From Escherichia phage ECML-10, in the sequence record OL631479.1: 64,000 bases of DNA; one strand, written 5' to 3'. This document shows, piece after piece, positions 12,260-34,030 of the stretch. The notes under the pieces are model-generated. The model ran no database searches. It saw nothing but the letters and a program-made list of their open reading frames with translations, and had not been told where the DNA came from. Numbering within the stretch: position 1 is the first letter of the stretch; each line of letters opens with the position of its first letter. A program made the position numbers and the translations under genes.

Positions 12260-12262
12260 TAT

Positions 12263-12541
12263 ATGAGCTGCGAAAAATCTTTTTTCATCATCATTTACGG
12301 TAAGGATAACTGCCCACATTGTGTCAGAGCAAAAGAATTTGCAATCAGCAAAGGTCTGCCTTTTGTATATAAGACACTTGGCGAGGGCTACACAAAAGAA
12401 GAGCTTATTGAGAAGTGTAGTCCAATCGTCCCCCGAACGTTGCCGCAGATCTTCTTAGAAAGCGATCTTGACAGTATCCATATAGGCGGTGCCGACGATT
12501 TCATCTCTTTTGTTAAGAATGGTTTTGGAGAGAAAAAGTGA
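12263..12541 (+). CDS. glutaredoxin/thioredoxin-like redoxin (NrdH/NrdC-like)
   Basis: CPHC active-site motif near N-terminus, 92 aa, between nrdB and nrdD. Confidence 0.6.
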   Translation: MSCEKSFFIIIYGKDNCPHCVRAKEFAISKGLPFVYKTLGEGYTKEELIEKCSPIVPRTLPQIFLESDLDSIHIGGADDFISFVKNGFGEKK

Positions 12542-13398
12542 AAGTTGTAAAACGGGACGGTAGAGAAGAGTTCTATAACGGAATTAAGGTGATCAAGGCG
12601 GCAGAGTCCGCCTTATTTGAGTCTGGACATACTGAAGAAGAAGCTTACCGGATCGCCTGCGAGGTTAATGAAGTTGTTGCTAACAATCTACCAACCGACC
12701 AGTGCACGATCTCTGTAAAAAATATCCATATCCTTGTTGAAGACGCTCTTATGGATATGGGTTTAAAATGTGCAGCCAGAGAATACATCCAGTATAGGCA
12801 GACAAGAGATAATAACAGAGAGGCAGGTGGAAAACTGCTCGCAGATATTAGTGGCTTCTTGGATCGCACTTGTGATGAATTTACAAAAGAAAACGCAAAT
12901 AAGCCTACCAATCATGTACACACTCATCGTGACCTGCTTGCAGGCATCCTTAGCAAACACCTTGCATCAACACAGATCCTGCCAGACCGTGTCTCAGAAG
13001 AGCACAATAAAGGCTTCATCCATGTGCATGATCTTGACTACTTGATCAGTCCGTTAACAAACTGTTGTTTGGTAAATTATCCAGATATGTTGGAAAACGG
13101 ATTCAACATTGGTAACGCCCATGTCAGTAAGCCGAAGTCAATAGGGGTTGCAACAACAATCCTTAGCCAAATCTCTAGTGCGGTAGCTAGTGCTCAATAT
13201 GGGGGTCAGACTATGAGCCATATTGATCATTATCTGGCACAGTATGCTGAAGCGACCTATGAGAAGAACCTTAAATTTTGCCAGGAACATTGGTTGCCAG
13301 ATGCTGAGACTGTTGCAATGCAAATGACAGATAAAGACGTATTTGACAGTATGCAGACATTACTTTATCAAATCAACACGTTAACCTCTGTCAACGGT
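12538..13398 (+). CDS. nrdD: anaerobic ribonucleotide reductase, exon 1
   Basis: GTG start overlapping upstream stop; ATP-cone N-terminus; ORF closes with a stop immediately after ...TSVNG, which continues in frame after the intron. Confidence 0.8.
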
Positions 13399-19116: not shown

Positions 19117-20166
19117 ATGAATTTAACACCTCGCAGCACCATGGTACACGGCATGAAAGAAAAACAGAACGGTTTCGAACCTATGAGTAATAAAATGTTC
19201 GGTATGCCGGGTGGTATTATGGAAACATACAGCTACCCAACACCAGTTGTTGACCACGTTCTTTATATCGACGATTTGGAAGACTTACAAGATCATATGT
19301 CTCGTCTGCAGACGATCCGTATGGCTCAGCCGGAAGAAAGCATTCGGGTGATCATCAATAGCCCTGGGGGTTGCGTGCACATTGCAATGGCTTATCTGCA
19401 GGCATTCCGCGAGTCTCAGGCAAGCGTTGTTGCACATGCTGAAGGGATGTGTTGCTCTGCTGGAACAATCTTATGGCTTGGTTGCAAAGAACGTACTGTG
19501 GCTCCGGACACAGAATTTATGTTCCACTACTATCAAGGTGGCACTTATGGTAACGGTGTGAACATGAATACTCAGGTCAGCTACTGGAAAAAACGTTTTG
19601 AACGCCTGATCGAAAAATACTACGGTGAGGTGCTGACAGAAGATGAGATCGCATCCATCACAGCTGGTGGCGAAGTGTGGTTGGACGGAGAAGAGCTGGC
19701 AGCACGCACTGGAGCTATTATTCTGGATGAAGGCAACATACAACGCATCCAGAACGGACAAAAACCGAAAAAGCTTCTGGCAAAAGGTGATGAGGAAGGC
19801 GTGTTAGGTGAAGCAGGTCTTCCGGAGATTCACCAGTGCACATCTTTAGATGAGTTAGTTCATGCTGTTGAATCTGCAAAAGAGGGTGGTTCGAAAGGTG
19901 ATGTTCACACTGTGTTCCTGAATCTGCAGATGGAAAGTGGCGAGACCGTCCGAATTGCCCTGGGTGAGATTACTTCAGAAGATCTGCAGAGATTCTCTGT
20001 CGTTGAACTTCAGGATATTCTGTCTCAATTGAAGACCACTCTGAACGGCGGTGAAGAGGTTAAGGTGAAAGATAAGACTCGCAAGCGTCTTGTGGACAAT
20101 ATTATTAAAACAGCAAAAGAGCTCAATGAAAAAATCCTGGGTGCAGGAATTGTCGAAGAAGCTTAA
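19117..20166 (+). CDS. ClpP-like serine protease
   Basis: segments INSPGGCVHIAMA and GMCCSAGT resemble the ClpP nucleophile region; 349 aa with C-terminal extension. Confidence 0.6.
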   Translation: MNLTPRSTMVHGMKEKQNGFEPMSNKMFGMPGGIMETYSYPTPVVDHVLYIDDLEDLQDHMSRLQTIRMAQPEESIRVIINSPGGCVHIAMAYLQAFRESQASVVAHAEGMCCSAGTILWLGCKERTVAPDTEFMFHYYQGGTYGNGVNMNTQVSYWKKRFERLIEKYYGEVLTEDEIASITAGGEVWLDGEELAARTGAIILDEGNIQRIQNGQKPKKLLAKGDEEGVLGEAGLPEIHQCTSLDELVHAVESAKEGGSKGDVHTVFLNLQMESGETVRIALGEITSEDLQRFSVVELQDILSQLKTTLNGGEEVKVKDKTRKRLVDNIIKTAKELNEKILGAGIVEEA

Positions 20167-20177
20167 ACATTAATTCT

Positions 20178-20200
20178 AAAGCCCTCTTCGGAGGGCTTTT
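20178..20200 (+). terminator. intrinsic terminator
   Basis: AAGCCCTC-ttcg-GAGGGCTTTT. Confidence 0.65.
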
Positions 20201-20217
20201 ATGATCTGGAGATTTGC

Positions 20218-20751
20218 ATGACTTGTGCTAGAAAACCTGATGAACAACGTAACGCATACGATGAGTATGTGACACCGGAGTGGTGTGCAGAAGGGCTGTA
20301 TGACCTCATTCCGTTCCCAGAAGATTGGACCTATTTGGAGCCTTGCAGAAATAGCGCCTCAGGCGTGTTCTACTCCCGTATGCCGTTAGGATCTGCATGG
20401 GGAGAAATCCAAGAAGGTGTTGACTATCTGAATACAGAATACAACCATGTTGACTGTATTATCACCAACCCACCGTACAGCTTGGCTCGTGAGTTTGTAG
20501 ACAAGGCGTTGAAAGATGCTGACGTAGTTATTATGCTTTTGCGTCTTAATTTTCTGGAAAGCAAAGCCAGATTTGAATGGTGGCTTGATAATGCACCTAC
20601 CACTGTGATCACAATATCTAAGCGTCCATCATTCCAATCGAATGGCAGAACTGACGGGCAAGCATATGCATATTTTGTATGGGACAAGAAAAACCGTCTA
20701 GACTTGCCGCCATTTATGTGGTTGGCACCACCAGAGGCAGATTTGAAATGA
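20218..20751 (+). CDS. small DNA methyltransferase (N6-adenine/N4-cytosine type, NPPY)
   Basis: motif DCIITNPPYS; 177 aa. Confidence 0.55.
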   Translation: MTCARKPDEQRNAYDEYVTPEWCAEGLYDLIPFPEDWTYLEPCRNSASGVFYSRMPLGSAWGEIQEGVDYLNTEYNHVDCIITNPPYSLAREFVDKALKDADVVIMLLRLNFLESKARFEWWLDNAPTTVITISKRPSFQSNGRTDGQAYAYFVWDKKNRLDLPPFMWLAPPEADLK

Positions 20752-20753
20752 AA

Positions 20754-21032
20754 ATGAGTGCTAAGGACAAGTTGCACCAGTTAGCGCTAAAACGTCCTGT
20801 AACGCTCCCTGACGAGCTTAACTCCATTTATGATGCGATTGTAGGGGAGATACAAAATAAAGCGTTAGCAGGCTTTCTGGGATGCGGATTTTCGATAAAT
20901 CTACCCTCACATCTCTCAGATTACTTCCCGCATATTGTTGGGGATTTGAGGGCAGGAGGTCTGCAGGTAGATGTTGTTGGCATCTCTCCAGAGAAAAATA
21001 ACACGGTTGCCTACTTGACAGTAACCTGGTAG
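20754..21032 (+). CDS. hypothetical protein
   Basis: ATG just after methyltransferase stop. Confidence 0.4.
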   Translation: MSAKDKLHQLALKRPVTLPDELNSIYDAIVGEIQNKALAGFLGCGFSINLPSHLSDYFPHIVGDLRAGGLQVDVVGISPEKNNTVAYLTVTW

Positions 21033-21066
21033 TTGTGTATTGTTGTTATCAACAAGGGGGTCATTT

Positions 21067-21306
21067 ATGTACAAGTCATTTTCAATTTACTCAAGACAGG
21101 CGAAACACTACACAGAGATCCTGATTACTCAGAAAAAATCTGTAGAGGGTGAGTGGGAGTATCACCATAAAATGTTGCGTCCAGCTTGGGTTTTTGATAG
21201 ACTTATTGCTATGATCCCTCTTGGAGAAGTATACCCTCTGACAGGTCATAGGGATGCTTGGGATTTAATTGATTACATAGATTCATTTAAGGAGCCCAGT
21301 GTATGA
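21067..21306 (+). CDS. hypothetical protein
   Basis: ATG after AAGGGGG RBS. Confidence 0.4.
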   Translation: MYKSFSIYSRQAKHYTEILITQKKSVEGEWEYHHKMLRPAWVFDRLIAMIPLGEVYPLTGHRDAWDLIDYIDSFKEPSV

Positions 21307-21701
21307 AGATTGAGATCACTAAAGAAGGTAAGAAAGTGTCTGGAGACTATGCAACAGTAATTCGAGATTTAATGTTTGAAACCACCAAGTTCGGCACATC
21401 TAAAGTTGGTCAAACGGTGAGTGTGCAAGGTAATATCACCTCAGGAGAGAAGATAATCATCGTGATCAAAGGACAAGATCCTGTGGAAGGAACAGTGGGC
21501 CGAGGAGGCTACCTGTGCATTTCTGAAGAACCGCGCATGCTGGTTGCTGATGACTCCACAGGTAAAAAGCGGGTATGTAACACTGACGAGGTGATGATTA
21601 TCTATCCAGTCAACCCAGATGATCCTGCAACATGGATTGTGGGGAATGAAATCTTCTCTTTAGAAGAGTTATCCTTCCCAGCTCCGCGCTCTGTTCAGTA
21701 A
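21303..21701 (+). CDS. hypothetical protein
   Basis: 132 aa ORF, overlaps upstream stop. Confidence 0.45.
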   Translation: MKIEITKEGKKVSGDYATVIRDLMFETTKFGTSKVGQTVSVQGNITSGEKIIIVIKGQDPVEGTVGRGGYLCISEEPRMLVADDSTGKKRVCNTDEVMIIYPVNPDDPATWIVGNEIFSLEELSFPAPRSVQ

Positions 21702-21740
21702 TAATTTATCTTACCAGGGACGGTAGAAGTAGGAGGTAGC

Positions 21741-21974
21741 ATGAAAGTTAAATTTCTTACAGATTTAGGGTACCCTTCCTTGGTTGACTGCGTTGGTAAA
21801 ATTGTGGAAGCAAAACGACTATCTGCAAACGATAATGTTGTCATGGTTAAGGGAAAAGATTTACTATCTGCAGGTGCAGAGTCTGGCAGGATCTCTCCTG
21901 ACTATACGTATTACCTGTCTTTAAGTAATCTACCAGAACGAGGCGGCAAAGGCCTTGAAGTTGTGGAGGAGTGA
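21741..21974 (+). CDS. small acidic protein, paralog family member
   Basis: MKVKFL... start, K-G-K-D-L-L-S-A-G-A core, C-terminal EVVEE; AGGAGG RBS. Confidence 0.5.
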   Translation: MKVKFLTDLGYPSLVDCVGKIVEAKRLSANDNVVMVKGKDLLSAGAESGRISPDYTYYLSLSNLPERGGKGLEVVEE

Positions 21975-22498
21975 CAGGTATGCTACTGGTTGATTGGAAA
22001 GATTTTTATGGCGATAAAGACCCGAAAGCATTTATATATAAGCCTTGGAGATACTCAGAGAGTCAAATTGCTGCAATAAACCTTACAGCAAAGCGCCGAA
22101 AAATTATTGAAAGTAAATATAGATACGCCCAGCTAGTGGCTGGTGTTTCTCCACAGGTAGAGGGTTTTGTACTTAAACTGTACGAAAAGTTTATGAATTA
22201 CGATTTGTCATTCGTGAAGGTGGGCGAGGATTTATCCCCTGGTAACAACGTAACCCGTTGGAAAGTTTCGTGTGACAAAAAACTCCCGATCAGTATTGAG
22301 GTGTGTCGATACTGGGGGTATCATGATTGTGGATTGTATGACTACCATGATGTGGAAATAAAGCCACGCAATCATCTAAGCGACCCAGAAAAAGATTACT
22401 TGAAGCATGTGATTCTTTCCATGTTTGGAGGGTATATCACAGAGAAAAATAGCGAAGACAGAGTATCCTTTCTTAACAGTTTGAACCAGGAGATGTAA
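21971..22498 (+). CDS. hypothetical protein
   Basis: 175 aa ORF, overlapping stop/start. Confidence 0.45.
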   Translation: MTGMLLVDWKDFYGDKDPKAFIYKPWRYSESQIAAINLTAKRRKIIESKYRYAQLVAGVSPQVEGFVLKLYEKFMNYDLSFVKVGEDLSPGNNVTRWKVSCDKKLPISIEVCRYWGYHDCGLYDYHDVEIKPRNHLSDPEKDYLKHVILSMFGGYITEKNSEDRVSFLNSLNQEM

Positions 22499-22499
22499 T

Positions 22500-22736
22500 A
22501 TGGCCATAGATACTGTGTTGGTTTGGTATTGCGCATTGACCTTTCTGACAATGGTTGTTTTAGCAACTCTTTGCATCATATCTTGTAGAAAAATTAAGTT
22601 TGACGACTTTATAACTATAATCACTGCCGCACCTTTTTGGCCTGTCGTTCTCTTCATTGTTGTTATGTGCTTGGTAGATCACTGTAAAACCGTCAGAAAA
22701 ATGAAGGAGGCAGATAAGAATGGTAACAGTGACTGA
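22500..22736 (+). CDS. small membrane protein
   Basis: two hydrophobic helices (VLVWYCALTFLTMVVLATLCII; FWPVVLFIVVMCLV). Confidence 0.4.
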   Translation: MAIDTVLVWYCALTFLTMVVLATLCIISCRKIKFDDFITIITAAPFWPVVLFIVVMCLVDHCKTVRKMKEADKNGNSD

Positions 22737-22956
22737 AACTGTTTATACTGTTCTTAGGGAGATTGCATTCTATACAGACCTTAGTTCAGTATCTTCATGG
22801 GAAAAGAGTGTGTATTTAAAATGGTGCGTGAAATTAGAGGTGACCTTCTAATGTTTCAAGCCATGTTTATTGAAATGCTCTCCGGAGTATTACTGCTGGT
22901 AGCCATTTTGGGTGGTGCGGCACTAATGTATAATTATCTTGAAAAAGGGGACAGTA

Positions 22957-23142
22957 ATGACAAAAAATAAATCCTTAGAACAGGCTGAAAACCTTCTCCA
23001 CGAGCTGGTAAAGGAGTGGAAAGTTGAATACTCAGATTTTAATGCAAGAGAGGGGGAAGATTATTGGCCTACGGAGCGCTCAGAGGGAGAGTGGTATCAA
23101 GATTTCATAGAATGGTTATATCAGACGTGTGATGAGGGGTGA
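22957..23142 (+). CDS. hypothetical acidic protein
   Basis: ATG after AAAAGGGGA. Confidence 0.4.
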   Translation: MTKNKSLEQAENLLHELVKEWKVEYSDFNAREGEDYWPTERSEGEWYQDFIEWLYQTCDEG

Positions 23143-23145
23143 CGA

Positions 23146-23600
23146 TGTTTGTTAAATATGTAAAAACGTGCCTCAACAACCTTGGTAGAGAGCATTGGTA
23201 CACCTTGCTTGAAAAAGGAGAAATTTTAACAAAATCTGGAAAGATAACTTTGATACCCTTGGATGATAAAGACCCGTCACTACTTGTCATAGATGATTAC
23301 GTTACAGGTGTGTCGTACGAGGTCTCTGTGGAGAGGTTAATACGCAGATCTGGAGGGCCTTATGACCGAAGAGAGTATGTTTTCGATTCTGTTACAGAGA
23401 AGGAGGATCCGTCTCTAATGTTTAGGATGGTAATCAGGGATATGAAATCATCTATAAATAGGATCGTAAAGGACATTAAAGAGCCTTTTAGGGTAAAAGT
23501 TAAGAAGTTTTTTGATTCTAAGATTAACATACTCGCCGTTGTGCTAGGCGTAATTCAACTTCTGTTAATTTTGCACTATCTTGAACTGTTGTTCAAGTAG
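23146..23600 (+). CDS. hypothetical protein with C-terminal TM helix
   Basis: ATG overlapping upstream stop; C-terminal ILAVVLGVIQLLLILHYL. Confidence 0.4.
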
Positions 23601-23660
23601 TGTGCAACAAGGCACAAAGGATGTGCCATGATTAAATAAACTAAGAAAGAGGTAGAGAGA

Positions 23661-24008
23661 ATGCCAAAGATTAAGTCGGTATTAATGTGGGCAGCTGTTG
23701 TAGCTTTTGTAGGATACTGGACTTGGGAAACTGAATTAAAAGATATCGGATATACCAGTCTTGAGAGCAAGGCATGCATTGGCATAACCGATGCATTCAG
23801 GCAAAATGCTATGGATCACGAATGTGTTGATGCAGATATAGATGAGAAACTGTCTAAGGACAAGGATTTTTACCATGGTCATGCCTTGCTTGATAGTGGT
23901 GACACTGTGGAATTCTGGTCGTGGTTCCGTGAAGATGGAACAATAAAGACAGCAGTAAAGATTTCCAACAAAGAGTTAATGCTGTTGCAGCAGAAGGAGG
24001 TGCAATGA
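23661..24008 (+). CDS. hypothetical protein with N-terminal signal/anchor
   Basis: GAGGTAGAGAGA RBS; N-terminal VLMWAAVVAFVGYWTW. Confidence 0.45.
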   Translation: MPKIKSVLMWAAVVAFVGYWTWETELKDIGYTSLESKACIGITDAFRQNAMDHECVDADIDEKLSKDKDFYHGHALLDSGDTVEFWSWFREDGTIKTAVKISNKELMLLQQKEVQ

Positions 24009-24292
24009 TTTGGATATCCTACACTGATGGCACCATGCTGTATACCGCAGGTACTAGGTATGAAGTTCAGGAGGACGATAAAAAATTTATCGTAAAAACA
24101 TTTGACAAGGACGACAACCTTTTGCTAGAATTGACTTACAAGGTTGGAGAGGTATCCGATATCCAATTGGATTGTGGTCATAAAGATAATCCACTCAAAA
24201 AACCTGGAATAGGCAAGGCTTCAGAAGAACGTTTGTCTCGTATTGCAGAAAGCGTTTCTCCCCAAAAATCTAAGAAGAGGAGTAGAAAATGA
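24005..24292 (+). CDS. hypothetical protein
   Basis: 95 aa ORF overlapping upstream stop. Confidence 0.4.
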   Translation: MIWISYTDGTMLYTAGTRYEVQEDDKKFIVKTFDKDDNLLLELTYKVGEVSDIQLDCGHKDNPLKKPGIGKASEERLSRIAESVSPQKSKKRSRK

Positions 24293-24489
24293 GTGACAAA
24301 ATTCTTAAATTTAATACCTACTATGAGAATGATTTGAACGATCTGTATTATATAGTGCGTAGCGAAAACCCGAATGTAGTACTGTTTTGCCGAGAACCTT
24401 TCAAAGGAGAGGAGATTGAATCTACCATGAATGTGGATCAGATTTCACACCTGCTGCTCCTTGGATCATTAAAAGAGGCAGTATTCTAA
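24289..24489 (+). CDS. hypothetical protein
   Basis: 66 aa ORF. Confidence 0.35.
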   Translation: MSDKILKFNTYYENDLNDLYYIVRSENPNVVLFCREPFKGEEIESTMNVDQISHLLLLGSLKEAVF

Positions 24490-24508
24490 ACCAGGATGGA
24501 GGGTTTTT

Positions 24509-24694
24509 ATGAAGCACTATTGTCTGTCTGGCAGAATGGGTGCAGATTGTGATTGGGTTTTCTTAAAACTTGTCAGTATTCGAGAGTTCATTCCAGAGGA
24601 AGAGCAAGAAAGTGAGCTGATGTCATGGATCAACCATTACGGTAACACTTTTCGGCATGTTAAGGTGGAAGAGTTGCCAAGCGAGGCTGATTGA
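24509..24694 (+). CDS. hypothetical protein
   Basis: 61 aa ORF after GGATGGAGGG. Confidence 0.35.
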   Translation: MKHYCLSGRMGADCDWVFLKLVSIREFIPEEEQESELMSWINHYGNTFRHVKVEELPSEAD

Positions 24695-24789
24695 CTATGA
24701 TTGCATCAATATTAACGTTTATGGGTGGCGTGGCATTCGGATTCATTGTTTGCCTGTTTATAGTGATTATGTCTATGCGAGGCTGAATT

Positions 24790-25083
24790 ATGAAACTTTT
24801 TGAGTGGTTTAAAAAGTTTAAATATAAAGCTGTAGCCATCGTGCCGTGGTCCATTCAGTGGGTGGACGATGAGGGATTACCAATTCCAGGTGATAAAGAC
24901 ACGGGATACTGGATCATGCTTGAGAACGGGTTCGGTAAACGGAAATATTCCTGCACGGATACCTCAGGAGCATCTTTTAGGAGAATTCCTGGGTATAAAT
25001 GTATGATTGTGTGGAAGATGTCTGGTGTACCTCCGGCCAATGCACAATATCTTACTACCAATCCAACCACAGAAGAGGACTAG
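24790..25083 (+). CDS. hypothetical protein
   Basis: 97 aa ORF. Confidence 0.4.
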   Translation: MKLFEWFKKFKYKAVAIVPWSIQWVDDEGLPIPGDKDTGYWIMLENGFGKRKYSCTDTSGASFRRIPGYKCMIVWKMSGVPPANAQYLTTNPTTEED

Positions 25084-25085
25084 TA

Positions 25086-25367
25086 ATGAAAAAGATTTGC
25101 GATACAGATGTGGAGTTCAAGGTGTGTAGTAAGGAGACCTATTGGGAAGTGAGACAAAAGGTATATTTGTTTGGACTTATCCCATATTGGTCCAAATTCT
25201 ACTGGGGAGCAGATGAATTAGGGAGATATGCCACCAAAGCTATGGCGCTTATAGGTATAGCTGAATATATTGCTGCTAGGGACAGGGCTGGAAAAACCTG
25301 CTACTACACTGCTGACGAGATTCGTAACAGTGTTTACGTCCCCCAACCACCTGAAGGAGACCGTTGA
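25086..25367 (+). CDS. hypothetical protein
   Basis: ATG at 25086; 93 aa. Confidence 0.4.
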   Translation: MKKICDTDVEFKVCSKETYWEVRQKVYLFGLIPYWSKFYWGADELGRYATKAMALIGIAEYIAARDRAGKTCYYTADEIRNSVYVPQPPEGDR

Positions 25368-25591
25368 TGAAAGTTAAAGTTTTAGATTCAAGCTTCTATA
25401 TTGGTCAGGAGCCTTTAGTGGGTAAAGTGTTTACCGCTGTCCATAACGAAGATTATCCTGACCTTTTAAAAATAAAGGGTGCAGATCTTATTGCCGCTGG
25501 TGCATCTCAGGAATGCTTTGACAGTCAGTGGACCTACAACTTTGCCCTAGGTGAGGATGTAGAGATAGTGGAGGACGATCATGAAGGTTAA
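25364..25591 (+). CDS. small acidic protein, paralog family member
   Basis: MKVKVLDSSFYIGQ..., IKGADLIAAGA, C-terminal EIVEDDHEG. Confidence 0.5.
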   Translation: MMKVKVLDSSFYIGQEPLVGKVFTAVHNEDYPDLLKIKGADLIAAGASQECFDSQWTYNFALGEDVEIVEDDHEG

Positions 25592-25835
25592 AATTCTTGA
25601 TTCTAACGTCTACTTGGGGCAATCCTTCCTGAAAGGAAAGGTCGTACCTGCGGTATACTTTGAAGGGTTGCCGTGGGATGATCCTGTGCGGCAACATCAC
25701 AGTTATGTAGGCCACAACGTGGTGTTTATCTTGGGATCAGACCTGATCACCGCTGGTGCACCTGAATATTATTTCGGGGAAGAGTCCTATTATGCCTTTG
25801 GGGTAGGGTCAGATGCAGATATTGTAGAGCTGTGA
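25581..25835 (+). CDS. small acidic protein, paralog family member
   Basis: MKVKILDSNVYLGQ..., GSDLITAGA; close paralog of 25364-25591. Confidence 0.5.
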   Translation: MKVKILDSNVYLGQSFLKGKVVPAVYFEGLPWDDPVRQHHSYVGHNVVFILGSDLITAGAPEYYFGEESYYAFGVGSDADIVEL

Positions 25836-25847
25836 TGGGTAACCGTT

Positions 25848-26246
25848 GTGAAAAATAAACTGTTCAAAGTTACAATGAAAATTCGCGGAGCTTGGAGCGT
25901 AAAGCAAGGGCGTATCCCAGAATTTGAGAAAGATTTCTACGTAGTCTCCACCTCGGAGGAGGCTGCATGCTGGCAGGCTGGCTATGCCTATGCAAGAACC
26001 TGGTACGAAGGATACCAGACTGGGGGCTATGACGGAGAAATTGTCAGCAAGGGTGTAGAAGAAATTAATGTGTTGACAAGTGAAAAAGTTTTTGTTATAG
26101 TGCATCCAGATTCCAGAGTGAAGCATTACTGGAATGCCAGAACAAAAACTTGGACACCGTTTGCAGACTCTGCTACACCACTTTTAAACCAAAAAGCTCT
26201 TGACTCTGCCCCGAGCTATGGGGTTGTTGAAGAAAAGCTAAACTGA
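25848..26246 (+). CDS. hypothetical protein, paralog of 28057-28452
   Basis: shared segments VIVHPDS..HYWNARTKTWTP versus VMRHPHS..YYWDVLNNEWTP. Confidence 0.5.
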   Translation: MKNKLFKVTMKIRGAWSVKQGRIPEFEKDFYVVSTSEEAACWQAGYAYARTWYEGYQTGGYDGEIVSKGVEEINVLTSEKVFVIVHPDSRVKHYWNARTKTWTPFADSATPLLNQKALDSAPSYGVVEEKLN

Positions 26247-26263
26247 AACAGTGAGGTGTCACT

Positions 26264-26554
26264 ATGATGGATTTAATTCTAAATATTGATAACGCAGAAG
26301 AATTTAAAGACGATGGTGTAACAAGCATGGACAAACCCTGCTCTGCTAAGGTTGACTCAAAATGGACCTACAAGTTTGACGGAGAGATCTTTGCAAATGA
26401 TGAGAAGGTTGTAGATGCTGCAGCCATTTTAAACGCTCTAGGGTACGACCCTGTGAATTCTTTGATCAAGGATCCTGTTGAGTTTGCAGAGTATGTTCGA
26501 AAAATGGCAGATCTTGCTGCGGATATTTTAAAAACTATAGACAACAAGCTGTAA
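26264..26554 (+). CDS. hypothetical acidic protein
   Basis: 96 aa ORF. Confidence 0.4.
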   Translation: MMDLILNIDNAEEFKDDGVTSMDKPCSAKVDSKWTYKFDGEIFANDEKVVDAAAILNALGYDPVNSLIKDPVEFAEYVRKMADLAADILKTIDNKL

Positions 26555-26560
26555 AAACTG

Positions 26561-26589
26561 TTGACACAACGCTTCAGATTTAGTATCAT
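26561..26589 (+). promoter_or_regulatory. sigma70-like promoter followed by leader hairpin
   Basis: TTGACA-17 nt-TATCAT; hairpin AGAGGGTTTGGTTCCCTCT at about 26598-26620 before the RBS. Confidence 0.45.
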
Positions 26590-26636
26590 TGTTTTCAAAG
26601 AGGGTTTGGTTCCCTCTTCTTTAAAAGGAACACGTT

Positions 26637-26954
26637 ATGCAAATTGAAATCACTGGCAACGTAGAAATCACTGAAGGTATGGTGTCTTTCATTTCCCACA
26701 AAATGTCTAAGCTGGAGCGTTTGCACCCCTCTGCCAACTATACACGTGTGAGTGTAAAAGTTGAAAATGATCACCAGGAAGTCATGGCGTTCATTTTTGA
26801 CACTTCCGGAAAAGAAGTTATTGCCAAAGCTAAAGGCAGTGACGCTTACGAGGCAACTGACCGTATGGTAGATGTTGCAGCACGTCAGTTGGCTAAATGC
26901 GGTGGAAAGAAAGGTAAAGGGAAGGGCAAAGTAAAGATTGACTTTGGAGAATGA
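26637..26954 (+). CDS. hypothetical protein with Gly/Lys-rich C-terminus
   Basis: 105 aa; C-terminal GGKKGKGKGKVK. Confidence 0.45.
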   Translation: MQIEITGNVEITEGMVSFISHKMSKLERLHPSANYTRVSVKVENDHQEVMAFIFDTSGKEVIAKAKGSDAYEATDRMVDVAARQLAKCGGKKGKGKGKVKIDFGE

Positions 26955-27091
26955 GGTGCTACAATGGGCGTGATTAAGAAATTAGTACCAAATGTAGAGA
27001 TTGCATGCTTTGAAATTATGTTTGCAATCGCAGTTGTAGTTAATGTGTTAGGTTACGGCTATTAATATCAAATAATTGAGGAGACCTCTAA

Positions 27092-27361
27092 ATGAAAATT
27101 AAATTATTCAAAACTGAGCTGGCAGACAAAAACTGTGGACTGGTTGAAGGCATGATCGTTGAAGCACAACCAGTGGACTACATGAAGGTAGTTCGTGATG
27201 CCTTGGGTGAAGGCTTTGATCTGATGGAGCCAGCTCTGCGAGAAGATGTTATCGAGATGGCTAAAAAGCACACACCTGAAGGCTTGGTGGTGTTTGTTGC
27301 ACCGGGTAACGGAGAAGAGTTGATTGTAACTCCTGATGTGTATGAGATTGTAGAAGAGTAA
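27092..27361 (+). CDS. small acidic protein, paralog family member
   Basis: MKIKLFK..., C-terminal YEIVEE; GAGGAGA RBS. Confidence 0.5.
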   Translation: MKIKLFKTELADKNCGLVEGMIVEAQPVDYMKVVRDALGEGFDLMEPALREDVIEMAKKHTPEGLVVFVAPGNGEELIVTPDVYEIVEE

Positions 27362-27456
27362 TCCTGCTTGGATTAGCATACTTCTCTCAATAAAAAGAAA
27401 AGTTTGTAATTATTTGTGGGAAAGGAATCCCCATCTCTTGCCAGAGGTGATACTAT

Positions 27457-27720
27457 ATGATTGTTTATTTTAAAACTTCAGGTGGATACCCTGATTCTCA
27501 AAGCTTGATCGGAAAAACGTGCACAGCATACTCACCTCTTGATGAGGAGGTAAGCGATATTCTACGAGATATGTATCGGATTGATCCCCAAGAAGCTTTT
27601 GATCAAAACCTTGTATTTGTCAAGGGCTCAGACATGAAGTCTTTGGGAGCATTCCCTGAAGCAGATGATGATGCCGTTTATTCGTTCATGACTCCTTTTG
27701 AAGCTATGGTTGTTGGGTGA
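27457..27720 (+). CDS. small acidic protein, paralog family member
   Basis: VFVKGSDMKSLGA core. Confidence 0.45.
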   Translation: MIVYFKTSGGYPDSQSLIGKTCTAYSPLDEEVSDILRDMYRIDPQEAFDQNLVFVKGSDMKSLGAFPEADDDAVYSFMTPFEAMVVG

Positions 27721-27724
27721 GAAT

Positions 27725-28057
27725 ATGAAAGTACGATTTATTGGTGAAACAATTCCTGTGCATCTCCGGTCGCCTGAAGATTCTGCAGATCTTGCATCTC
27801 AGAAGGCGAGAGGTTATGATAAGAAAGTAATCTCAAACGATGTAGAACTTGAGGCTACTAGTTTACCTGACCCTGCTGCATTCTTTAATCATTATGGATA
27901 CTATTTCAGCAATCTGATGAATATCGGTGAGCTTGTGTTTATTAGTGGTGGAGAAATTGTTAGCAAGCTTGGCGGCGATCCGGATGTCTTTCATGAAACC
28001 TGTCCTTTTGCATTTGTGGTAGGTTCAGATGTGGAAGTTATTGAGGAGGTGCGGTAA
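27725..28057 (+). CDS. small acidic protein, paralog family member
   Basis: MKVRFIGE..., VFISGGEIVSKLGG, C-terminal VEVIEEVR. Confidence 0.5.
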   Translation: MKVRFIGETIPVHLRSPEDSADLASQKARGYDKKVISNDVELEATSLPDPAAFFNHYGYYFSNLMNIGELVFISGGEIVSKLGGDPDVFHETCPFAFVVGSDVEVIEEVR

Positions 28058-28452
28058 TGGTAAGACTATACCGTGTTGAGTATAGCTCAGATACTGTATA
28101 CAACGTAAGAAGCAAAGATCGCAGCGACAGAGTGCAAGAAATGTATGTTCTTGCCGACAGTCCGCTATCTGCAGCGTTCAAGGCAGGGGCTCTTGCATCT
28201 CGTTGGAAATTTGAAGGTGGATCTTTCTATGAAGAAACCCTTGAAGATTCTGTTGTTATTTCTTCTGTAGAGGTTTCAGATGACTACGAAGGGAAAAAGT
28301 TCGTAATGCGGCACCCACACAGCAACATTGCGTACTACTGGGATGTTCTGAACAACGAGTGGACCCCAGATCTTCAGAAGGCTACTGTGCTAACACCGTT
28401 TTTGGCAGATAAGTTTCCACCAGAAGGTAATTTATCCGCACTGTTTCAGTAA
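28057..28452 (+). CDS. hypothetical protein, paralog of 25848-26246
   Basis: see 25848-26246. Confidence 0.5.
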   Translation: MVRLYRVEYSSDTVYNVRSKDRSDRVQEMYVLADSPLSAAFKAGALASRWKFEGGSFYEETLEDSVVISSVEVSDDYEGKKFVMRHPHSNIAYYWDVLNNEWTPDLQKATVLTPFLADKFPPEGNLSALFQ

Positions 28453-28470
28453 TTTTCTTGCACACAGGTG

Positions 28471-28499
28471 TTGACAACGCCAACCCTGTGTGAAATAAT
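28471..28499 (+). promoter_or_regulatory. sigma70-like promoter with flanking 8-bp inverted repeat
   Basis: TTGACA-17 nt-AATAAT; CACACAGG ... CCTGTGTG brackets the -35 box. Confidence 0.45.
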
Positions 28500-28531
28500 A
28501 CCTTCATCTTAACAAGACAGGAGACCGATTG

Positions 28532-28789
28532 ATGAAGATTAAATTGAAAAACCTTGAAACGGCAGAGATTCAGGACGGTGTAGATTTCCGTTCTAAAGAT
28601 GGTGACATCTTAGAGGTAAATCTTCCAACCTACACGCTGATTAAAGGTTTTGGCAACGTTCCGGAAGAGGATATTCCAGAAATTCTTATGATGTTGATTC
28701 TTGACGGAACTGTGTTTGTAGGTGAAGGTGAGAACGCTATTGCAATCCCAAGCCATTTTTATGAAGTAGTCGACGAAGAGGTGCTGTAA
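28532..28789 (+). CDS. small acidic protein, paralog family member
   Basis: MKIKLKNLE..., C-terminal YEVVDEEVL. Confidence 0.5.
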   Translation: MKIKLKNLETAEIQDGVDFRSKDGDILEVNLPTYTLIKGFGNVPEEDIPEILMMLILDGTVFVGEGENAIAIPSHFYEVVDEEVL

Positions 28790-29140
28790 ATGAAAGTAGA
28801 AATTACCGGTTTTGATGTGAATGCGGTTCCGGAAGATATTTTATCTAAATTGCCGGAAGGTTTTGGTAACGGTGTTGTGGTGGATGCTGTTCCTCCTACC
28901 AAAGACATTCTGCTGCAGTATGGTGTAGCAGAGGAAGATGTTGATAAAGTTCTTACAATGATGGCAATCGATCGTGTTGTCGTTGTTAAAGGTCTCGATA
29001 ATTTTGAGAGTGATCCTCTGATTATTCGTGGAGATGACTACAAAATCATCGATAATGAAGGCCAAGAGTTCTATGAGCCTTGTGCAGAAGATATTCTTAA
29101 CTTATTACTGGAAGCAGGCACCGAAGAGGAGGACGAATAA
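28790..29140 (+). CDS. small acidic protein, paralog family member
   Basis: MKVEITGF..., VVVVKGLD, C-terminal TEEEDE; strongly acidic. Confidence 0.5.
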   Translation: MKVEITGFDVNAVPEDILSKLPEGFGNGVVVDAVPPTKDILLQYGVAEEDVDKVLTMMAIDRVVVVKGLDNFESDPLIIRGDDYKIIDNEGQEFYEPCAEDILNLLLEAGTEEEDE

Positions 29141-29469
29141 TGAAGATTGACCCGTTACTGAAGGCTCGTGCAGAAAAAGCGTACACCATTAAGCTGACCA
29201 ACCTGGTTCCTACTTGTCATCCAGATGTAGGTTGGCCCGAAGGTTTGGTGGAGGGAACTGTAACAGCTGCATACCTTCCTAACATCAAATACCTCATGGA
29301 GATCTTAGAGATGGATGAGGAAACTGCAGAACAGTTCCAGTTGGATATGAAACAGAGTGGGACTCTGGTTATTCACGGGTGGTATAATACTAAAGATGCA
29401 GAAGACCCTCTGGTAACTTCTAATCTGGCATATGAAATCTTAGGGCCTTTGAACCTGGAGGAAGACTAA
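29140..29469 (+). CDS. small acidic protein, paralog family member
   Basis: MKIDPLL..., C-terminal LNLEED. Confidence 0.45.
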   Translation: MKIDPLLKARAEKAYTIKLTNLVPTCHPDVGWPEGLVEGTVTAAYLPNIKYLMEILEMDEETAEQFQLDMKQSGTLVIHGWYNTKDAEDPLVTSNLAYEILGPLNLEED

Positions 29470-29756
29470 TGAAAGATCTGGTTAAGATTAAGATTAAAGA
29501 TACCAATGGGGAGCTCAGCCATTTTGGAATTAATGATGGTGACGAGCTGATCGCACACCTGCCTACCAAGGAGGTTGTAAGCAAAGCAGTTGCCGGAGAA
29601 GAAGCTGCAATGCAGGCTGCAGGTGTGGATGAAAACTATGTAGCTATGTGCATGTGCCGAGATCAGGTTGTTCTGTATAAAGCGTATCGACCAAACGGAG
29701 CCACGGAGTGGCTTGTATTCCGACCCGAAGGATATGAAATCTTAGAGGCACTATGA
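29469..29756 (+). CDS. small acidic protein
   Basis: MKDLVKIKIKD..., C-terminal YEILEAL. Confidence 0.45.
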   Translation: MKDLVKIKIKDTNGELSHFGINDGDELIAHLPTKEVVSKAVAGEEAAMQAAGVDENYVAMCMCRDQVVLYKAYRPNGATEWLVFRPEGYEILEAL

Positions 29757-29845
29757 TAAATCTTGCCAAGGTTGCAACGGCACTGTTAATTATTTGCTGG
29801 TCAGTAACCTTAACACTGTGTCTTGTATTTCAGTGAGGTGCTTGT

Positions 29846-30109
29846 ATGAACATCCTGATGTGGGTTATAGCAGTGGCGTTTGTTGCATGTTTTTGCTGCT
29901 GGGTTGCGGTGAGGATTTCTGTAGCTACCCTTCGGAAGTTGGGGTTCTCAGAATGGGATATTAATATCCTTTCTTTTCGCAATGAGACAATATCAGCCGC
30001 CCTGCTTTGTAAGAAATTCAAGTGGGAACCTTGTGAGGTCATGAACTATCTAAGAACGGGAGATATCCCTGAAAGATTTAAAAAAGTTCTTGACGGTAAG
30101 GATAAATGA
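29846..30109 (+). CDS. small membrane protein
   Basis: N-terminal TM helix WVIAVAFVACFCCWVAV. Confidence 0.4.
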   Translation: MNILMWVIAVAFVACFCCWVAVRISVATLRKLGFSEWDINILSFRNETISAALLCKKFKWEPCEVMNYLRTGDIPERFKKVLDGKDK

Positions 30110-30264
30110 TAGTATAGTGACTAACAAGAGGTGAGGAATGACAGATTTTACTGAAGCTTTAATGATGGCCTTGTCTGTTTTAGCGCTATCGGTGTGTTTT
30201 GGGGCGTTATTCACATCTCTGGTTAAAGTTTTACATACAGTATTATTACCCAAGGAGCGCAGTA

Positions 30265-30516
30265 ATGACGAAGATTGACTTGAATGCTGGCGACCATGTT
30301 GTTGTCAAATGCATCGGAGATTATCTTGGATTCACAATCGGCAATACTTACGAGGCGGTAGTGGCGAAGGTTTATCATGATAAAGTCCTCAGTCTTGTAT
30401 TTGACTGCGATGATGATGGGGATGACCGATACGTCTGTGAGGTGCTGGCACGAGACGATAGTGAAGACCAGAAATTCCTGGTTATTGAACTGAACGGTAT
30501 TTTTGTAGAACGTTAA
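30265..30516 (+). CDS. hypothetical acidic protein
   Basis: ATG at 30265; 83 aa. Confidence 0.4.
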   Translation: MTKIDLNAGDHVVVKCIGDYLGFTIGNTYEAVVAKVYHDKVLSLVFDCDDDGDDRYVCEVLARDDSEDQKFLVIELNGIFVER

Positions 30517-30544
30517 TTTAAAACAACATAAGGAGACTCTTACT

Positions 30545-30850
30545 ATGGCTAAATCTAAAGTTGAACTGTTCACCTCTCTTCCTTCTGACACTGCAGAGCG
30601 TGATCGCCTTCGCAAAACAATCGAAGAACTGGTGGAACTCCAACTTCAGATTAAAGATCTGAAAGATGCCATCAAGGATATCATTCTTGTTGAGAAGCAG
30701 GATCATCTGTATTCTCCTAAATTCATCAAATCTCTGGTGGCTACCGAGTTCGATATTCGATATGAGGCTGAAAAACGTCGAGCTAAAATCGAAGAAGAGG
30801 TTGAGCACATGTCCGAGGCAGACATTCTGTTCAAACGCTCTGTAGAATAA
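30545..30850 (+). CDS. hypothetical coiled-coil protein
   Basis: AAGGAGA RBS; heptad-like charged sequence. Confidence 0.45.
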   Translation: MAKSKVELFTSLPSDTAERDRLRKTIEELVELQLQIKDLKDAIKDIILVEKQDHLYSPKFIKSLVATEFDIRYEAEKRRAKIEEEVEHMSEADILFKRSVE

Positions 30851-30856
30851 TGACAA

Positions 30857-30882
30857 AGAGAGGGGCTTGGGCCCCTCTTTTT
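30857..30882 (+). terminator. intrinsic terminator
   Basis: AGAGGGGC-ttgg-GCCCCTCT followed by TTTTT. Confidence 0.7.
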
Positions 30883-30905
30883 ACTATCTATGAAGGAGAT
30901 TTGAG

Positions 30906-31232
30906 ATGGGTATACCGATCACTGTAAAAGAATTGAATGAACGTGATGCAGGTGGTCTATGGCCTGCACGAAAAATACGCTGCGTCTACATGAAAGAGAA
31001 CCTTGAACATCTTGATCAACAGATCAAGGTCGGTGATATTTTCGAGGTCTTCTATTCCAATCGTCGCAACTGGGAAACCATTCAGCCTTCTGGTTTTGTT
31101 CTTGCCAAACTTGACACTGGAGAAGTGATTATCCCAGGGTTGGATATTGTCTTCGAAATTATCCAGGAGTGGGATCCGGATAAGATTAGATATGAAGAGT
31201 TATTCGGTGAAGGTATTATCAAACCTGTGTGA
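30906..31232 (+). CDS. hypothetical protein
   Basis: 108 aa ORF after GAAGGAGA RBS. Confidence 0.45.
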   Translation: MGIPITVKELNERDAGGLWPARKIRCVYMKENLEHLDQQIKVGDIFEVFYSNRRNWETIQPSGFVLAKLDTGEVIIPGLDIVFEIIQEWDPDKIRYEELFGEGIIKPV

Positions 31233-31240
31233 GGTGGATT

Positions 31241-31540
31241 ATGTCTACAAAGACGGCTAAATACTCCTACATGCCATCAACCTCTGCAGAGGTAGATTTT
31301 AGTTTCGATGTGTTTCCACTGTTTGAGGTGGTTCTGGCATACCCAACAATACTATCTACTCCGGAATCACTTGTGCCTGTTAAGTTGCAGAACGCCATGC
31401 ATTCTATGCACTACAACAATAAATGCAGGCACAGATGGTGTCAGGACGAGGAAAAAGATCTGGATAGTTTGAGAGATTTTGACAGTCACCTTTTGACACC
31501 TTTCAGCTACTCCAACCTTGATAAGCCATCATGGGTATAG
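31241..31540 (+). CDS. hypothetical protein
   Basis: ATG after GAGGTGG. Confidence 0.4.
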   Translation: MSTKTAKYSYMPSTSAEVDFSFDVFPLFEVVLAYPTILSTPESLVPVKLQNAMHSMHYNNKCRHRWCQDEEKDLDSLRDFDSHLLTPFSYSNLDKPSWV

Positions 31541-31565
31541 CAAAATATCAAATTTAAGACACCTA

Positions 31566-31592
31566 GGACGCTCTGTGGCGTCCTTTTCTTTA
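31566..31592 (+). terminator. intrinsic terminator
   Basis: GGACGC-tctgtg-GCGTCC followed by TTTTCTTT. Confidence 0.7.
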
Positions 31593-31753
31593 TCTGGTGC
31601 ACGATTGCATACCTTGGACAGATAATCTCCTTACAGAGCGTTTAAGAGCTTCCTACAAACAACTCTCTTTTTCGAGCGTAGCGAGAACGCACGTCCGTTT
31701 TGACCCAAATCCCCATACGCTCGGATTTTAACCAAACCCTCGCGGCGTTTCTA

Positions 31754-31782
31754 TTGACACATTACCGCTCCAGTGATAGTAT
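31754..31782 (+). promoter_or_regulatory. sigma70-like promoter
   Basis: TTGACA-17 nt-TAGTAT. Confidence 0.5.
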
Positions 31783-31900
31783 CCACACATAGTTTGTAGA
31801 ATATGGAATACACAATGAGAACATTGTCCGAAGTTTTAGTAGTGATCCTGATGATCATTACGTCCATAGCGGCTGTTGCCGGAATACTCACGGGTGGAAC

Positions 31901-32113
31901 ATGATCAACACGCATGCACCTGAAGAGACATCCGAAGGAGTGACCATATGTCCATTGTCTGAGCCAGTGAAAGAGGAAAACTTCGATTCTGAAGATTCTC
32001 CATCTTCGCTCCAGGTAGATCCTGAGGCTGATGACCTAACGTGGGAAGACATCGTAGACATCTGGTTCTCCATTATGCCTGAGCACGAAGAGTTCAGAGG
32101 TGGTAGACTATGA
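31901..32113 (+). CDS. hypothetical acidic protein
   Basis: 70 aa ORF; a possible 29-aa hydrophobic peptide ORF lies just upstream (about 31816-31905). Confidence 0.35.
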   Translation: MINTHAPEETSEGVTICPLSEPVKEENFDSEDSPSSLQVDPEADDLTWEDIVDIWFSIMPEHEEFRGGRL

Positions 32114-32234
32114 AGCACCGAGCCCACACAGGTTCCTCATGCTAAAGCATGGCCTGAAGAGGCAAACGTGTATAATTCCAGTGCATTGGAACGTATAAAA
32201 CCCTGTTCACACTCTCATTTCCAGAGGAGATTTC

Positions 32235-32450
32235 ATGAAGATAGAAATATTTGGTGGAGCTGACAACACTCGTGGCCTGATTTACCTTGAATTCGATGAA
32301 ACATACCTGCCAGAGGTGTTAAATATAGACTCTGTTGCTGAGGCTTTGGGAGTAAACCCTAAAGAACTCCACTCTTGTGCTGAGATCGATGGTTGGGAAG
32401 AGACCATGAACATTGATTTCAGTGAAGTAGAGGATGAACCGCTGGACTGA
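32235..32450 (+). CDS. small acidic protein, paralog family member
   Basis: MKIEIFGG..., C-terminal EVEDEPLD; last plus-strand gene. Confidence 0.45.
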   Translation: MKIEIFGGADNTRGLIYLEFDETYLPEVLNIDSVAEALGVNPKELHSCAEIDGWEETMNIDFSEVEDEPLD

Positions 32451-32577
32451 CACACAATTAGCTGCCCGGCTAAAGTGCTGGAAGCACCTATAACACATCT
32501 TTCAACTAAATTTCCCACCACCACAATCACTTACCTCCCACACATGACTGTTTGCTTGTTTAGTGAGCAGTCATGCC

Positions 32578-32605
32578 TTGACATTCTTGCCTATCCTGAT
32601 AAAAT
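32578..32605 (+). promoter_or_regulatory. sigma70-like promoter facing into ORF-poor region
   Basis: TTGACA-16 nt-TAAAAT; no credible ORF downstream. Confidence 0.4.
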
Positions 32606-34030
32606 TAAGTTCTTCTCTTTTCTTTTACCGAGTAATTCGGGTTTTCTGTTCTCTTCGGTTTGAAGGGGTATGGAGATACACCTGAGTGAACAGGGTGAAC
32701 AACCGAACATTTGGCTATGGCATTAGCATGGCGAAGCGGACGGGTGACGAAAGAGGGGCCGGAGGACACCAGTCACTGCCATATGATATATGGGTGATAA
32801 CCTGAAGAGTCTGAATAAGTGTTTAAGTACCAGTCAGAGGAAAAGGTGAATGGTAGCCGAAGGGGGAGGGGGTTTCTTGTATCTTTAATTTGTATATTAT
32901 GTATACATTCGTAAACCAATCTCATCTGAATCTGTTTACCACACAAAGTGGATAGAGACAAATATTACCTATTAAACTTGAATTATTTATAGAAAATACT
33001 ACAACACTACTTAAGTATTTGATTTTACACACAAATCCTGCAGATATTCACCCCCCATATTTAACATACTTGTAACATATTCCATACTCTACCTGACCGA
33101 TCAACTCACCCAACTACATCCTCCATATTTCCCCTGTCTGTACTACCCCTGCCCAGCCGGGAGTCCCGTCATATCTGGCTTTCCAGCAAATATCACACCC
33201 ACAAATATCATTGCCTGAAGAGGGTTTCATCCCATAATACATGCCTTACCTGAAGAGCGCTTCATATACCCCGTAAATTTTTTAATTGACACCCTCCCCG
33301 CCGCCGGAGGGGGTTGGCTTTTCCCACACAGACCCGAAGAGCCAGCCAGAAATATCTGAACAGGTCCAGCTATGCCACGATTTTGACCTGACCTACAGGA
33401 GTGCTTCCCTGTCAGGAGCCGGTAGCGACTGGAGTGCTGCCAGGCGGACGAAATGGGAATACTTCTCATTCTTATAATAATTCTCAAATATCGAGGCAGT
33501 GAGGCAAATTAATAGGTGAGGCCGTTCACACAGTGGCACAACATTTGCAACCTATCTTGTGTGGGGGAATGAGAATACCTATCATTGTGAGAATAGTTAT
33601 CATTACGGGCAATTTAACATAATACCCATTATGCGCACCACTGGCGATCCATACAGGGATTGATAACATGAGTTACTGTTTATGCATATAACAATTATAT
33701 TTCTTACTATTTGTGTGGGATATAGTTAGCAGCCAATAGATTAGATATTGACCTGTAGACTTCTGACCGTCCAGACGTCTAAACGCCCACACAACAAGGC
33801 TTATACATACATCGCTGAATGTAAACAGGGCCGCAAAAATGCTACCATACCAGATTGTAAATTTTTCATACAGCACTTGACAAAGAGGAGAAAAACTTGT
33901 CTGACACTTTAGACACAATAGTGACATAATGGTGACACACTGGGCATACTCAACACACTGGATACAATAACAGTTGTTACTATTGCATGCTTCACTGTTC
34001 ACGTATAGATTGTTTACACAGAGATGATAA

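Follow-up and report, generated by a model that had tools for sequence, protein, structure and literature searches.

Two diverged trios of small acidic and C-family genes in an rV5-like Escherichia phage: paralogy, probable ancient duplication and a tentative role

The two trios and their arrangement

Within a 64-kb stretch of DNA from Escherichia phage ECML-10 (record OL631479.1; "the window" hereafter denotes the whole stretch analyzed, 64,000 nucleotides), two sets of three genes, A1-B1-C1 and A2-B2-C2, are embedded in a dense array of small genes that all lie on the same strand, each of these "trios" being composed of two genes for small acidic proteins (family 1) and a following gene for a larger protein (family C). 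Over the 4 kb surrounding the trios, Escherichia phage JES2013 shows 98.2% identity, and rV5, FFH2 and over 100 further Vequintavirus genomes show 95-97%; nucleotide identity thus assigns the window to a Vequintavirus, i.e., an rV5-like Escherichia coli phage. In those Vequintavirus records, all genes of the region are annotated as "hypothetical protein", except for an HPF/RaiA gene located between the trios. Literature searches found no functional work on the trio genes, and paralogs or a duplication go unmentioned in the rV5 genome paper (PMC3606486). The trio genes and a solitary relative of their small members are as follows:

25367-25591, + strand: A1, 74 aa, isoelectric point (pI) 4.2, small acidic family-1 protein, predicted SH3-like barrel
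25581-25835, + strand: B1, 84 aa, pI 4.7, family-1 paralog with a loop insertion, overlapping A1 by 11 nt
25848-26246, + strand: C1, 132 aa, pI 7.8, N-terminal domain predicted to be eL20/LX-like, family motif in a C-terminal beta region
27457-27720, + strand: A2, 87 aa, pI 4.05, divergent family-1 member
27725-28057, + strand: B2, 110 aa, pI 4.6, family-1 member with N-terminal and loop insertions
28057-28452, + strand: C2, 131 aa, pI 4.9, C-family paralog of C1
21741-21974, + strand: Z, 77 aa, fifth family-1 paralog, solitary

An alternative start of A1 is the TTG at 25364, the mechanically called open reading frame (ORF) of B2 begins at 27698, and the stop codon of B2 overlaps the start of C2 by 1 nt. 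The initial annotation, made from the letters alone, had described a unit of two small acidic genes and a gene of ~131 codons that occurs twice, and this description holds: the ORFs are where it placed them, and the four small trio proteins are acidic (pI 4.05-4.66). Its shared motif of the two large genes, V(I/M)xHP(D/H)S...YW...(T/E)WTP, is likewise present (VIVHPDS..HYW..TWTP in C1 and VMRHPHS..YYW..EWTP in C2). In a hidden Markov model census, the whole window contains five genes of family 1, two of family C and five of a second small acidic family, with no others, and these three families hold 12 of the ~27 genes between 21.7 and 29.8 kb. The small-small-C order occurs twice on the + strand with every position homologous between the copies, and the probability that two small genes stand directly before each C gene by chance is ~2.8e-4, given five small and two C genes among 27 local ones.

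Homology of the trio genes

Pairwise protein alignment found 28% identity between C1 and C2 over 120 residues (E 6e-10), with a Smith-Waterman z-score of 17.3 and no shuffled sequence out of 500 scoring as high, and both proteins match the PHROGs profile phrog_7379 end to end (C1 at E 7.9e-74 and C2 at E 2.4e-66, profile positions 1-131 of 131 in each case), so that their similarity reaches far beyond the short motif on which the initial annotation had based the relationship. C1 and C2 are true paralogs. The motif of the family, HPxS..YW..W(T/V)(P/S), lies in the C-terminal beta region, and its invariant residues correspond in C1 to His86, Pro87 and Ser89 and to Trp95 and Trp102. An exhaustive HMMER profile search with C through 1.84 billion representative proteins gave eight hits, of which P0005 and P0006 are the only real homologs apart from rV5-type sequences and fragments; the former is C2-like (40% identity to C2 and 26% to C1), the latter C1-like (39% to C1 and 28% to C2), and P0008-P0010 were dismissed, judging from their sequences, as long repeat-protein artefacts. 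A word-indexed protein search with C1 returned near-identical proteins and fragments only.

Two other resemblances of the C proteins were discarded. The motif form YYW(D/N)...W(T/V)(P/S) recalls a WW domain, the profile of which has its two Trp residues 20-22 positions apart; in the C proteins, the conserved Trp residues are only seven residues apart, and no Pfam match was obtained at E<=1. The note in the rV5 record that ORF142 is like a protein of Listeria phage A118 was reproduced by none of the searches, a Listeria phage protein appearing only at a Foldseek E of 1.0 and a probability of 0.15.

The small proteins are more unevenly related. A1 and B1 share 41% identity (E 7e-16), the blastp match between B1 and B2 (E 4e-4) is limited to the C-terminal 39 aa, and that between A2 and B1 has an E of 7e-3; nevertheless, jackhmmer, run over all ORFs of the window and of three related loci, unites A1, B1, A2, B2 and Z and nothing else. 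When ortholog groups were compared by hhalign, every pair was significant except A2-B2 and B2-Z: A1 has its best partner in B1 (6.7e-15; A1-A2, 9e-6), B2 also has its best partner in B1 (3.6e-7), A2 matches Z, B1 and A1 with similar scores, and A2-B2 (9e-4) is the weakest of all pairs. Profile evidence of this kind identifies A1, B1, A2, B2 and Z as one five-member family, the conserved features of which are a KGxDLxxAGA turn and a C-terminal (E/D)(I/V)VEE tail. The PHROGs profile phrog_5009 is matched well by A1 (6e-39) and B1 (3e-32), only at 1.2e-4 by A2 and not at all by B2, and A2 and B2 are assigned to phrog_13920 and phrog_13661, respectively. Family-1 matches all come from within rV5-like contigs, and Z is the sole family-1 gene kept in all three lineages compared (rV5, L011 and L005/L014). 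Searches of Pfam, NCBIfam and PDB sequences with all members found no relative, and the 20-kb syntenic region of Cronobacter phage EspYZU15, a Seunavirus relative, has no member of the three families.

The second small acidic family, E, F, G, H and I (27092-27361 and 28532-29756), flanks trio 2 and has in common an MK(I/V)K start, a G.(I/V).A element and a C-terminal YE(I/V)(V/L)EE tail. Merging it with family 1 was tried and rejected, as hhalign gave a probability of 5%, limited to the common MK(V/I)K..G.(V/I).A start. Two deposited annotations of this family deserve a remark. In phage naswa, gene E (5785-6054 of locus L016, corresponding to 27092-27361 of the window) is annotated as "sigma 54 modulation factor", has no such domain, and its label looks like one carried over from the adjoining hpf gene. 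In rV5 (DQ832317; 8467-8737 of locus L002, corresponding to 29469-29756 of the window), gene I appears as two overlapping ORFs, 153 and 154, and a one-frame alignment with gene I covers only residues 1-58 of 95, which reflects a frameshift in rV5 or else an error in its sequencing.

Age, constraint and order of the duplications

Between the trios, the similarity detected by blastn is limited to two matches, one of 26 nt (85%) and one of 18 nt, and a repeat finder returns a 24-nt repeat (D3) in the C-termini of B1 and B2. The nucleotide comparison proposed by the initial annotation thus yields no similarity beyond these stretches of 24-26 and 18 nt, and the duplication is visible in protein only, as would be expected if it were ancient. 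C1-type and C2-type orthologs show ~40% identity within a type and 26-31% across types, the L005/L014 lineage keeps the C1 type only and the L011 lineage the C2 type only, while in a neighbor-joining tree, each of A1, B1, A2 and B2 is joined with its ortholog from L011 (bootstrap 98-100%). Subtype homologs in separate lineages, together with this pairing, place the divergence of C1 from C2, as well as that among A1, B1, A2 and B2, before these lineages, and the duplication appears, on this phylogenetic evidence, to be ancient and to precede the separation of the known rV5-like lineages.

The initial annotation had also expected the locus to be under diversifying selection, which is not what the substitution patterns indicate. 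Ratios of nonsynonymous to synonymous substitution rates (dN/dS; Nei-Gojobori method, the six trio genes compared with those of rV5, naswa and Aya, the latter being the most divergent deposited Vequintavirus) are 0.02-0.27 for A1, B1, C1, A2, B2 and C2 (e.g., dN 0.010 and dS 0.41 for C1 against Aya). The trio proteins are at least 95% identical in 117-118 deposited records; C2 reaches at least 95% in all 118 matching phage records and at least 99% in 86 of them, and C1 stands at 96-99% in 116 records. Compared with L011, the trio genes are 40-68% and the surrounding small genes 34-87% identical, the trios thereby being no more diverged than their background. Low dN/dS, high identity and this background-level divergence reveal no sign of diversifying selection, and the trio genes are genuine protein-coding genes under constraint. 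An arms-race locus, at which the paralogs would serve as variants for escaping or inhibiting host defences that vary, might still be envisaged for genes that are small, acidic, lineage-restricted and rich in paralogs, whose presence is mosaic between lineages and of which copy-number variants exist; with dN/dS this low in all six genes, most C2 copies at or above 99% identity and an L011 divergence matching that of the neighboring genes, however, we regard it as improbable. A five-gene patch upstream (24005-25367 of the window, 4320-5587 of L011) is 79-97% identical between the two lineages, its flanking genes are 34-74% identical, and it ends at the A1 start, a pattern that suggests recent recombinational exchange between them.

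The comparison with related genomes for copy-number variation, which had likewise been proposed, brought up three kinds of variants: an A1::B1 hybrid, a C1::D fusion and a deletion. The hybrid, a single gene of 70 aa followed by C1, was found in three independent read-set assemblies (L018-L020); its junction lies in the common GCCGCTGGTGCA sequence of the conserved DLIAAGA motif, and it corresponds to a 256-bp deletion between the following direct repeats:

25477-25507, + strand: direct repeat in A1, encoding GADLIAAGA (repeat D8, 77% over 31 nt, spacing 256)
25733-25763, + strand: partner repeat in B1, encoding GSDLITAGA (repeat D8, crossover site)

The C1::D fusion was seen in one assembly (L021), and P0032, whose source is a short contig, resembles a Z-type/A1 recombinant. 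In phage EduardKellenberger (Bas59), a natural deletion of ~4 kb joins an ORF128-like gene to the final 33 codons of C1, taking out Z, A1, B1 and most of C1; the phage is viable, and trio 1 is therefore dispensable.

What remains to be weighed is the order of events. The segmental duplication followed by divergence that the initial annotation had put forward is borne out insofar as the paralogs stand in the same order and have diverged, whereas a single three-gene event is only one possibility: A1 is nearest to B1 (41% identity) and not to A2, and the trio is no fixed unit in related phages. Several observations thus weigh against a plain copying of the whole trio, and others against its alternative. 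The neighbor-joining groupings, (A1,B1) at 77% bootstrap and (A2,B2) at 55%, suggest separate tandem duplications, and of the positional orthology expected of a copied trio (A1 with A2, B1 with B2), only the B1-B2 affinity is seen, which for its part favors whole-trio copying. In L011, A1-B1 is followed by a gene Y with no C1, and in L005 and L014, C1 is preceded by genes Y and W and lacks small genes in its vicinity; Y being present between the positions of B1 and C1 in these relatives (the two Y genes are 34% identical, E 7e-13), the A1-B1-C1 adjacency in rV5 may be secondary.

Two alternatives to the copying of the whole trio are to be considered. There may have been no three-gene event at all, a pair of one small and one C gene having been duplicated and the small gene then tandem-duplicated independently in each copy, which would make the two-plus-one layout a parallel development. 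The much greater closeness of A1 to B1 (hhalign 7e-15) than to A2 and the two tree groupings speak for it, yet A2-B2 is the weakest pair and their clade may be the product of long-branch attraction, B2 has its best partner in B1, the only residual nucleotide stretch is common to B1 and B2, and, with A1 x B1 recombination documented by the hybrid, gene conversion could have homogenised A1 and B1 and so explain their closeness; we consider this alternative a serious contender, albeit somewhat less likely to be correct than wrong. It seems unlikely, on the other hand, that small-gene/C adjacency is not ancestral at all, i.e., that each family grew on its own and genes once lying in between were deleted to give the rV5 layout, with no cassette in an evolutionary sense. 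The interposed genes Y and W and the homology of Y between lineages are what such a scenario would build upon, but two small-small-C arrangements among 27 genes would then be a coincidence (p ~2.8e-4), A2-B2-C2 is intact in both rV5 and L011, and small genes like Y are typical insertions in phage arrays.

In the account that we prefer, an ancestral module of at least one small acidic SH3-like gene and a subsequent C-family gene would have been duplicated ahead of the split among the known rV5-like lineages; a tandem duplication of the small gene would have taken place as well, be it prior to the copying of the module or in each copy on its own; purifying selection would have maintained the individual copies while they diverged to 25-40% protein identity; and paralog recombination and deletions would still be altering the copy number. 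Its evolutionary core, an ancient duplication with constrained paralogs, is held with high confidence.

Surroundings, predicted folds and comparison with known systems

The gene between the trios that carries an annotation elsewhere encodes HPF/RaiA, a ribosome hibernation factor (26637-26954; Pfam Ribosomal_S30AE in relatives), and is present in rV5-type and L011-type phages and missing from the L005/L014 lineage. Two sigma-70-type promoters of the rV5 record (DQ832317) fall within the region:

26561-26589, + strand: P144, TTGACA-17-TATCAT, 11 of 12 matches
28471-28499, + strand: P150, TTGACA-17-AATAAT with TG, directly after C2

P144 lies between the trios, upstream of hpf, E, A2, B2 and C2. 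The rV5 genome paper proposed genes 82-163 as one long transcription unit with host-type promoters throughout (PMC3606486). The rV5 record carries no annotation for a further, near-consensus sigma-70 promoter-like site within the C1 coding sequence (26073-26101; TTGACA-17-TATAGT, extended -10 TG, 11 of 12 matches), located ~160 nt upstream of gene D, and an Rfam scan of 20000-33000 found no RNA family. In the related loci, the position of P150 is taken in L011 by a 98-aa gene with a Phage_P22_Y8K6 domain directly after C2 (8467-8763), and the small-gene array of L014 contains an IS605 OrfB/TnpB-type gene (11532-12644; Pfam OrfB_IS605 and Cas12f1-like_TNB) just after the conserved g30545 homolog. 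This E. coli Vequintavirus region also has 95-97% identity to eighteen GenBank records that bear the name "Campylobacter phage" and give Campylobacter jejuni as the host (MG0656xx); these records are probably mislabelled or derived from co-isolated coliphages.

Structure prediction gives family 1 a five-strand, partly open beta barrel that superposes on SH3, KOW and PsaE structures, i.e., a predicted SH3-like barrel, and suggests for the C proteins an N-terminal domain that may be eL20/LX-like. By sequence, the eL20/LX family (Pfam Ribosomal_L18A) is not recovered, as C1 and C2 match no Pfam family at E<=1 and no PDB sequence. We infer early expression from the sigma-70-type promoters and the position of the genes. 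Host-type promoters, the size, acidity and fold of the products, lineage restriction with mosaic presence and the dispensability of trio 1 add up to the profile of early accessory proteins, and the trio products would accordingly be early-expressed and individually dispensable. Their small size, acidity, SH3-like fold, dispensability and lack of a catalytic family match further point to proteins that would bind host or phage proteins, in host takeover or counter-defence, and be neither enzymes nor virion parts; this binding role is put forward tentatively. Purifying selection on each diverged copy suggests distinct tasks, and the two copies most likely have separate ones. Ancient module duplication combined with dispensable early accessory binders is, as a whole, the explanation that we find best and rather probable.

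Two more specific roles fare considerably worse. The folds invite a translation-directed reading, in which ribosomes would be the target of the C proteins (eL20/LX-like) and of the small proteins (SH3/KOW-like), jointly with the phage HPF/RaiA encoded next to them. In a wider form, which takes in the family-2 genes, these products would make up a host-translation-remodelling module and dock on ribosomes or on factors that couple transcription to translation, and each of the two trios, if this were true, would have a different state or partner as its target. Such fold matches are generic, though, and the proteins are acidic (the pI of 4.9 of C2 argues against rRNA binding), and L005/L014 keep C1 without hpf, making both the ribosome-directed version and its wider form very improbable. 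Little more can be said for an Ocr- or ArdA-like role, in which the small acidic proteins would imitate DNA and thereby inhibit restriction enzymes or further host proteins that bind DNA: their pI of 4.05-4.66, small size and location in an early region would suit the part, but the predicted fold is a compact SH3-like barrel and not an elongated B-DNA-like shape, and, as indirect evidence, Vequintavirinae are reported to be exceptionally sensitive to restriction-modification systems (PMC8594841), so that we give this idea hardly any credence.

As regards practical value, 12 genes annotated as "hypothetical" in every rV5-like phage (21.7-29.8 kb) can now be referred to three paralog families, two of them with predicted folds, and Bas59, the phages with A1::B1 hybrids and the one with the C1::D fusion constitute natural mutants in which function could be tested. 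As Vequintaviruses see wide use in biocontrol and phage therapy, knowing which of their accessory genes are dispensable aids the engineering of their genomes.

Among known families, PHROGs already joins C1 with C2 (phrog_7379) and A1 with B1 (phrog_5009), both under the label "unknown function", and splits A2 and B2 off into groups of their own, whereas the profile searches presented here unite the latter two with A1, B1 and Z. It is this union into one family, the predicted folds for both families, the dating of the duplication against three lineages and the documentation of recombinant and deleted variants that are new. Described SH3-like and KOW barrels (PsaE, Spt5 KOW and eukaryotic SH3) have no sequence relationship with family 1 (9-24% identity, no Pfam match) and lack its acidity, KGxDLxxAGA turn and (E/D)(I/V)VEE tail; similarly, eL20/L18a/archaeal LX and PurS share 9-20% identity with C, again with no Pfam match, and have no counterpart of its extra conserved C-terminal beta region with the HPxS..YW..W(T/V)(P/S) motif, the small domain of C being common to many uncharacterised phage proteins of 64-78 aa.

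Tandem paralog arrays of small early genes occur in large lytic phages, such as those in the T4 and T5 early regions and the host-takeover module of SPO1. Unlike the characterised takeover proteins, the members of the trios are without a known target, and their folds and families show no sequence relation to those proteins. In their organization, nevertheless, the trio-region genes resemble those arrays: they are small, dense, on the same strand and behind sigma-70-type promoters, are confined to one lineage, differ in a mosaic fashion from one relative to the next and are individually dispensable. That small early genes multiply into paralogs is well known from large lytic phages and no new biology, and the trio genes are ordinary, well-conserved accessory phage genes found almost exclusively in rV5-like phages.

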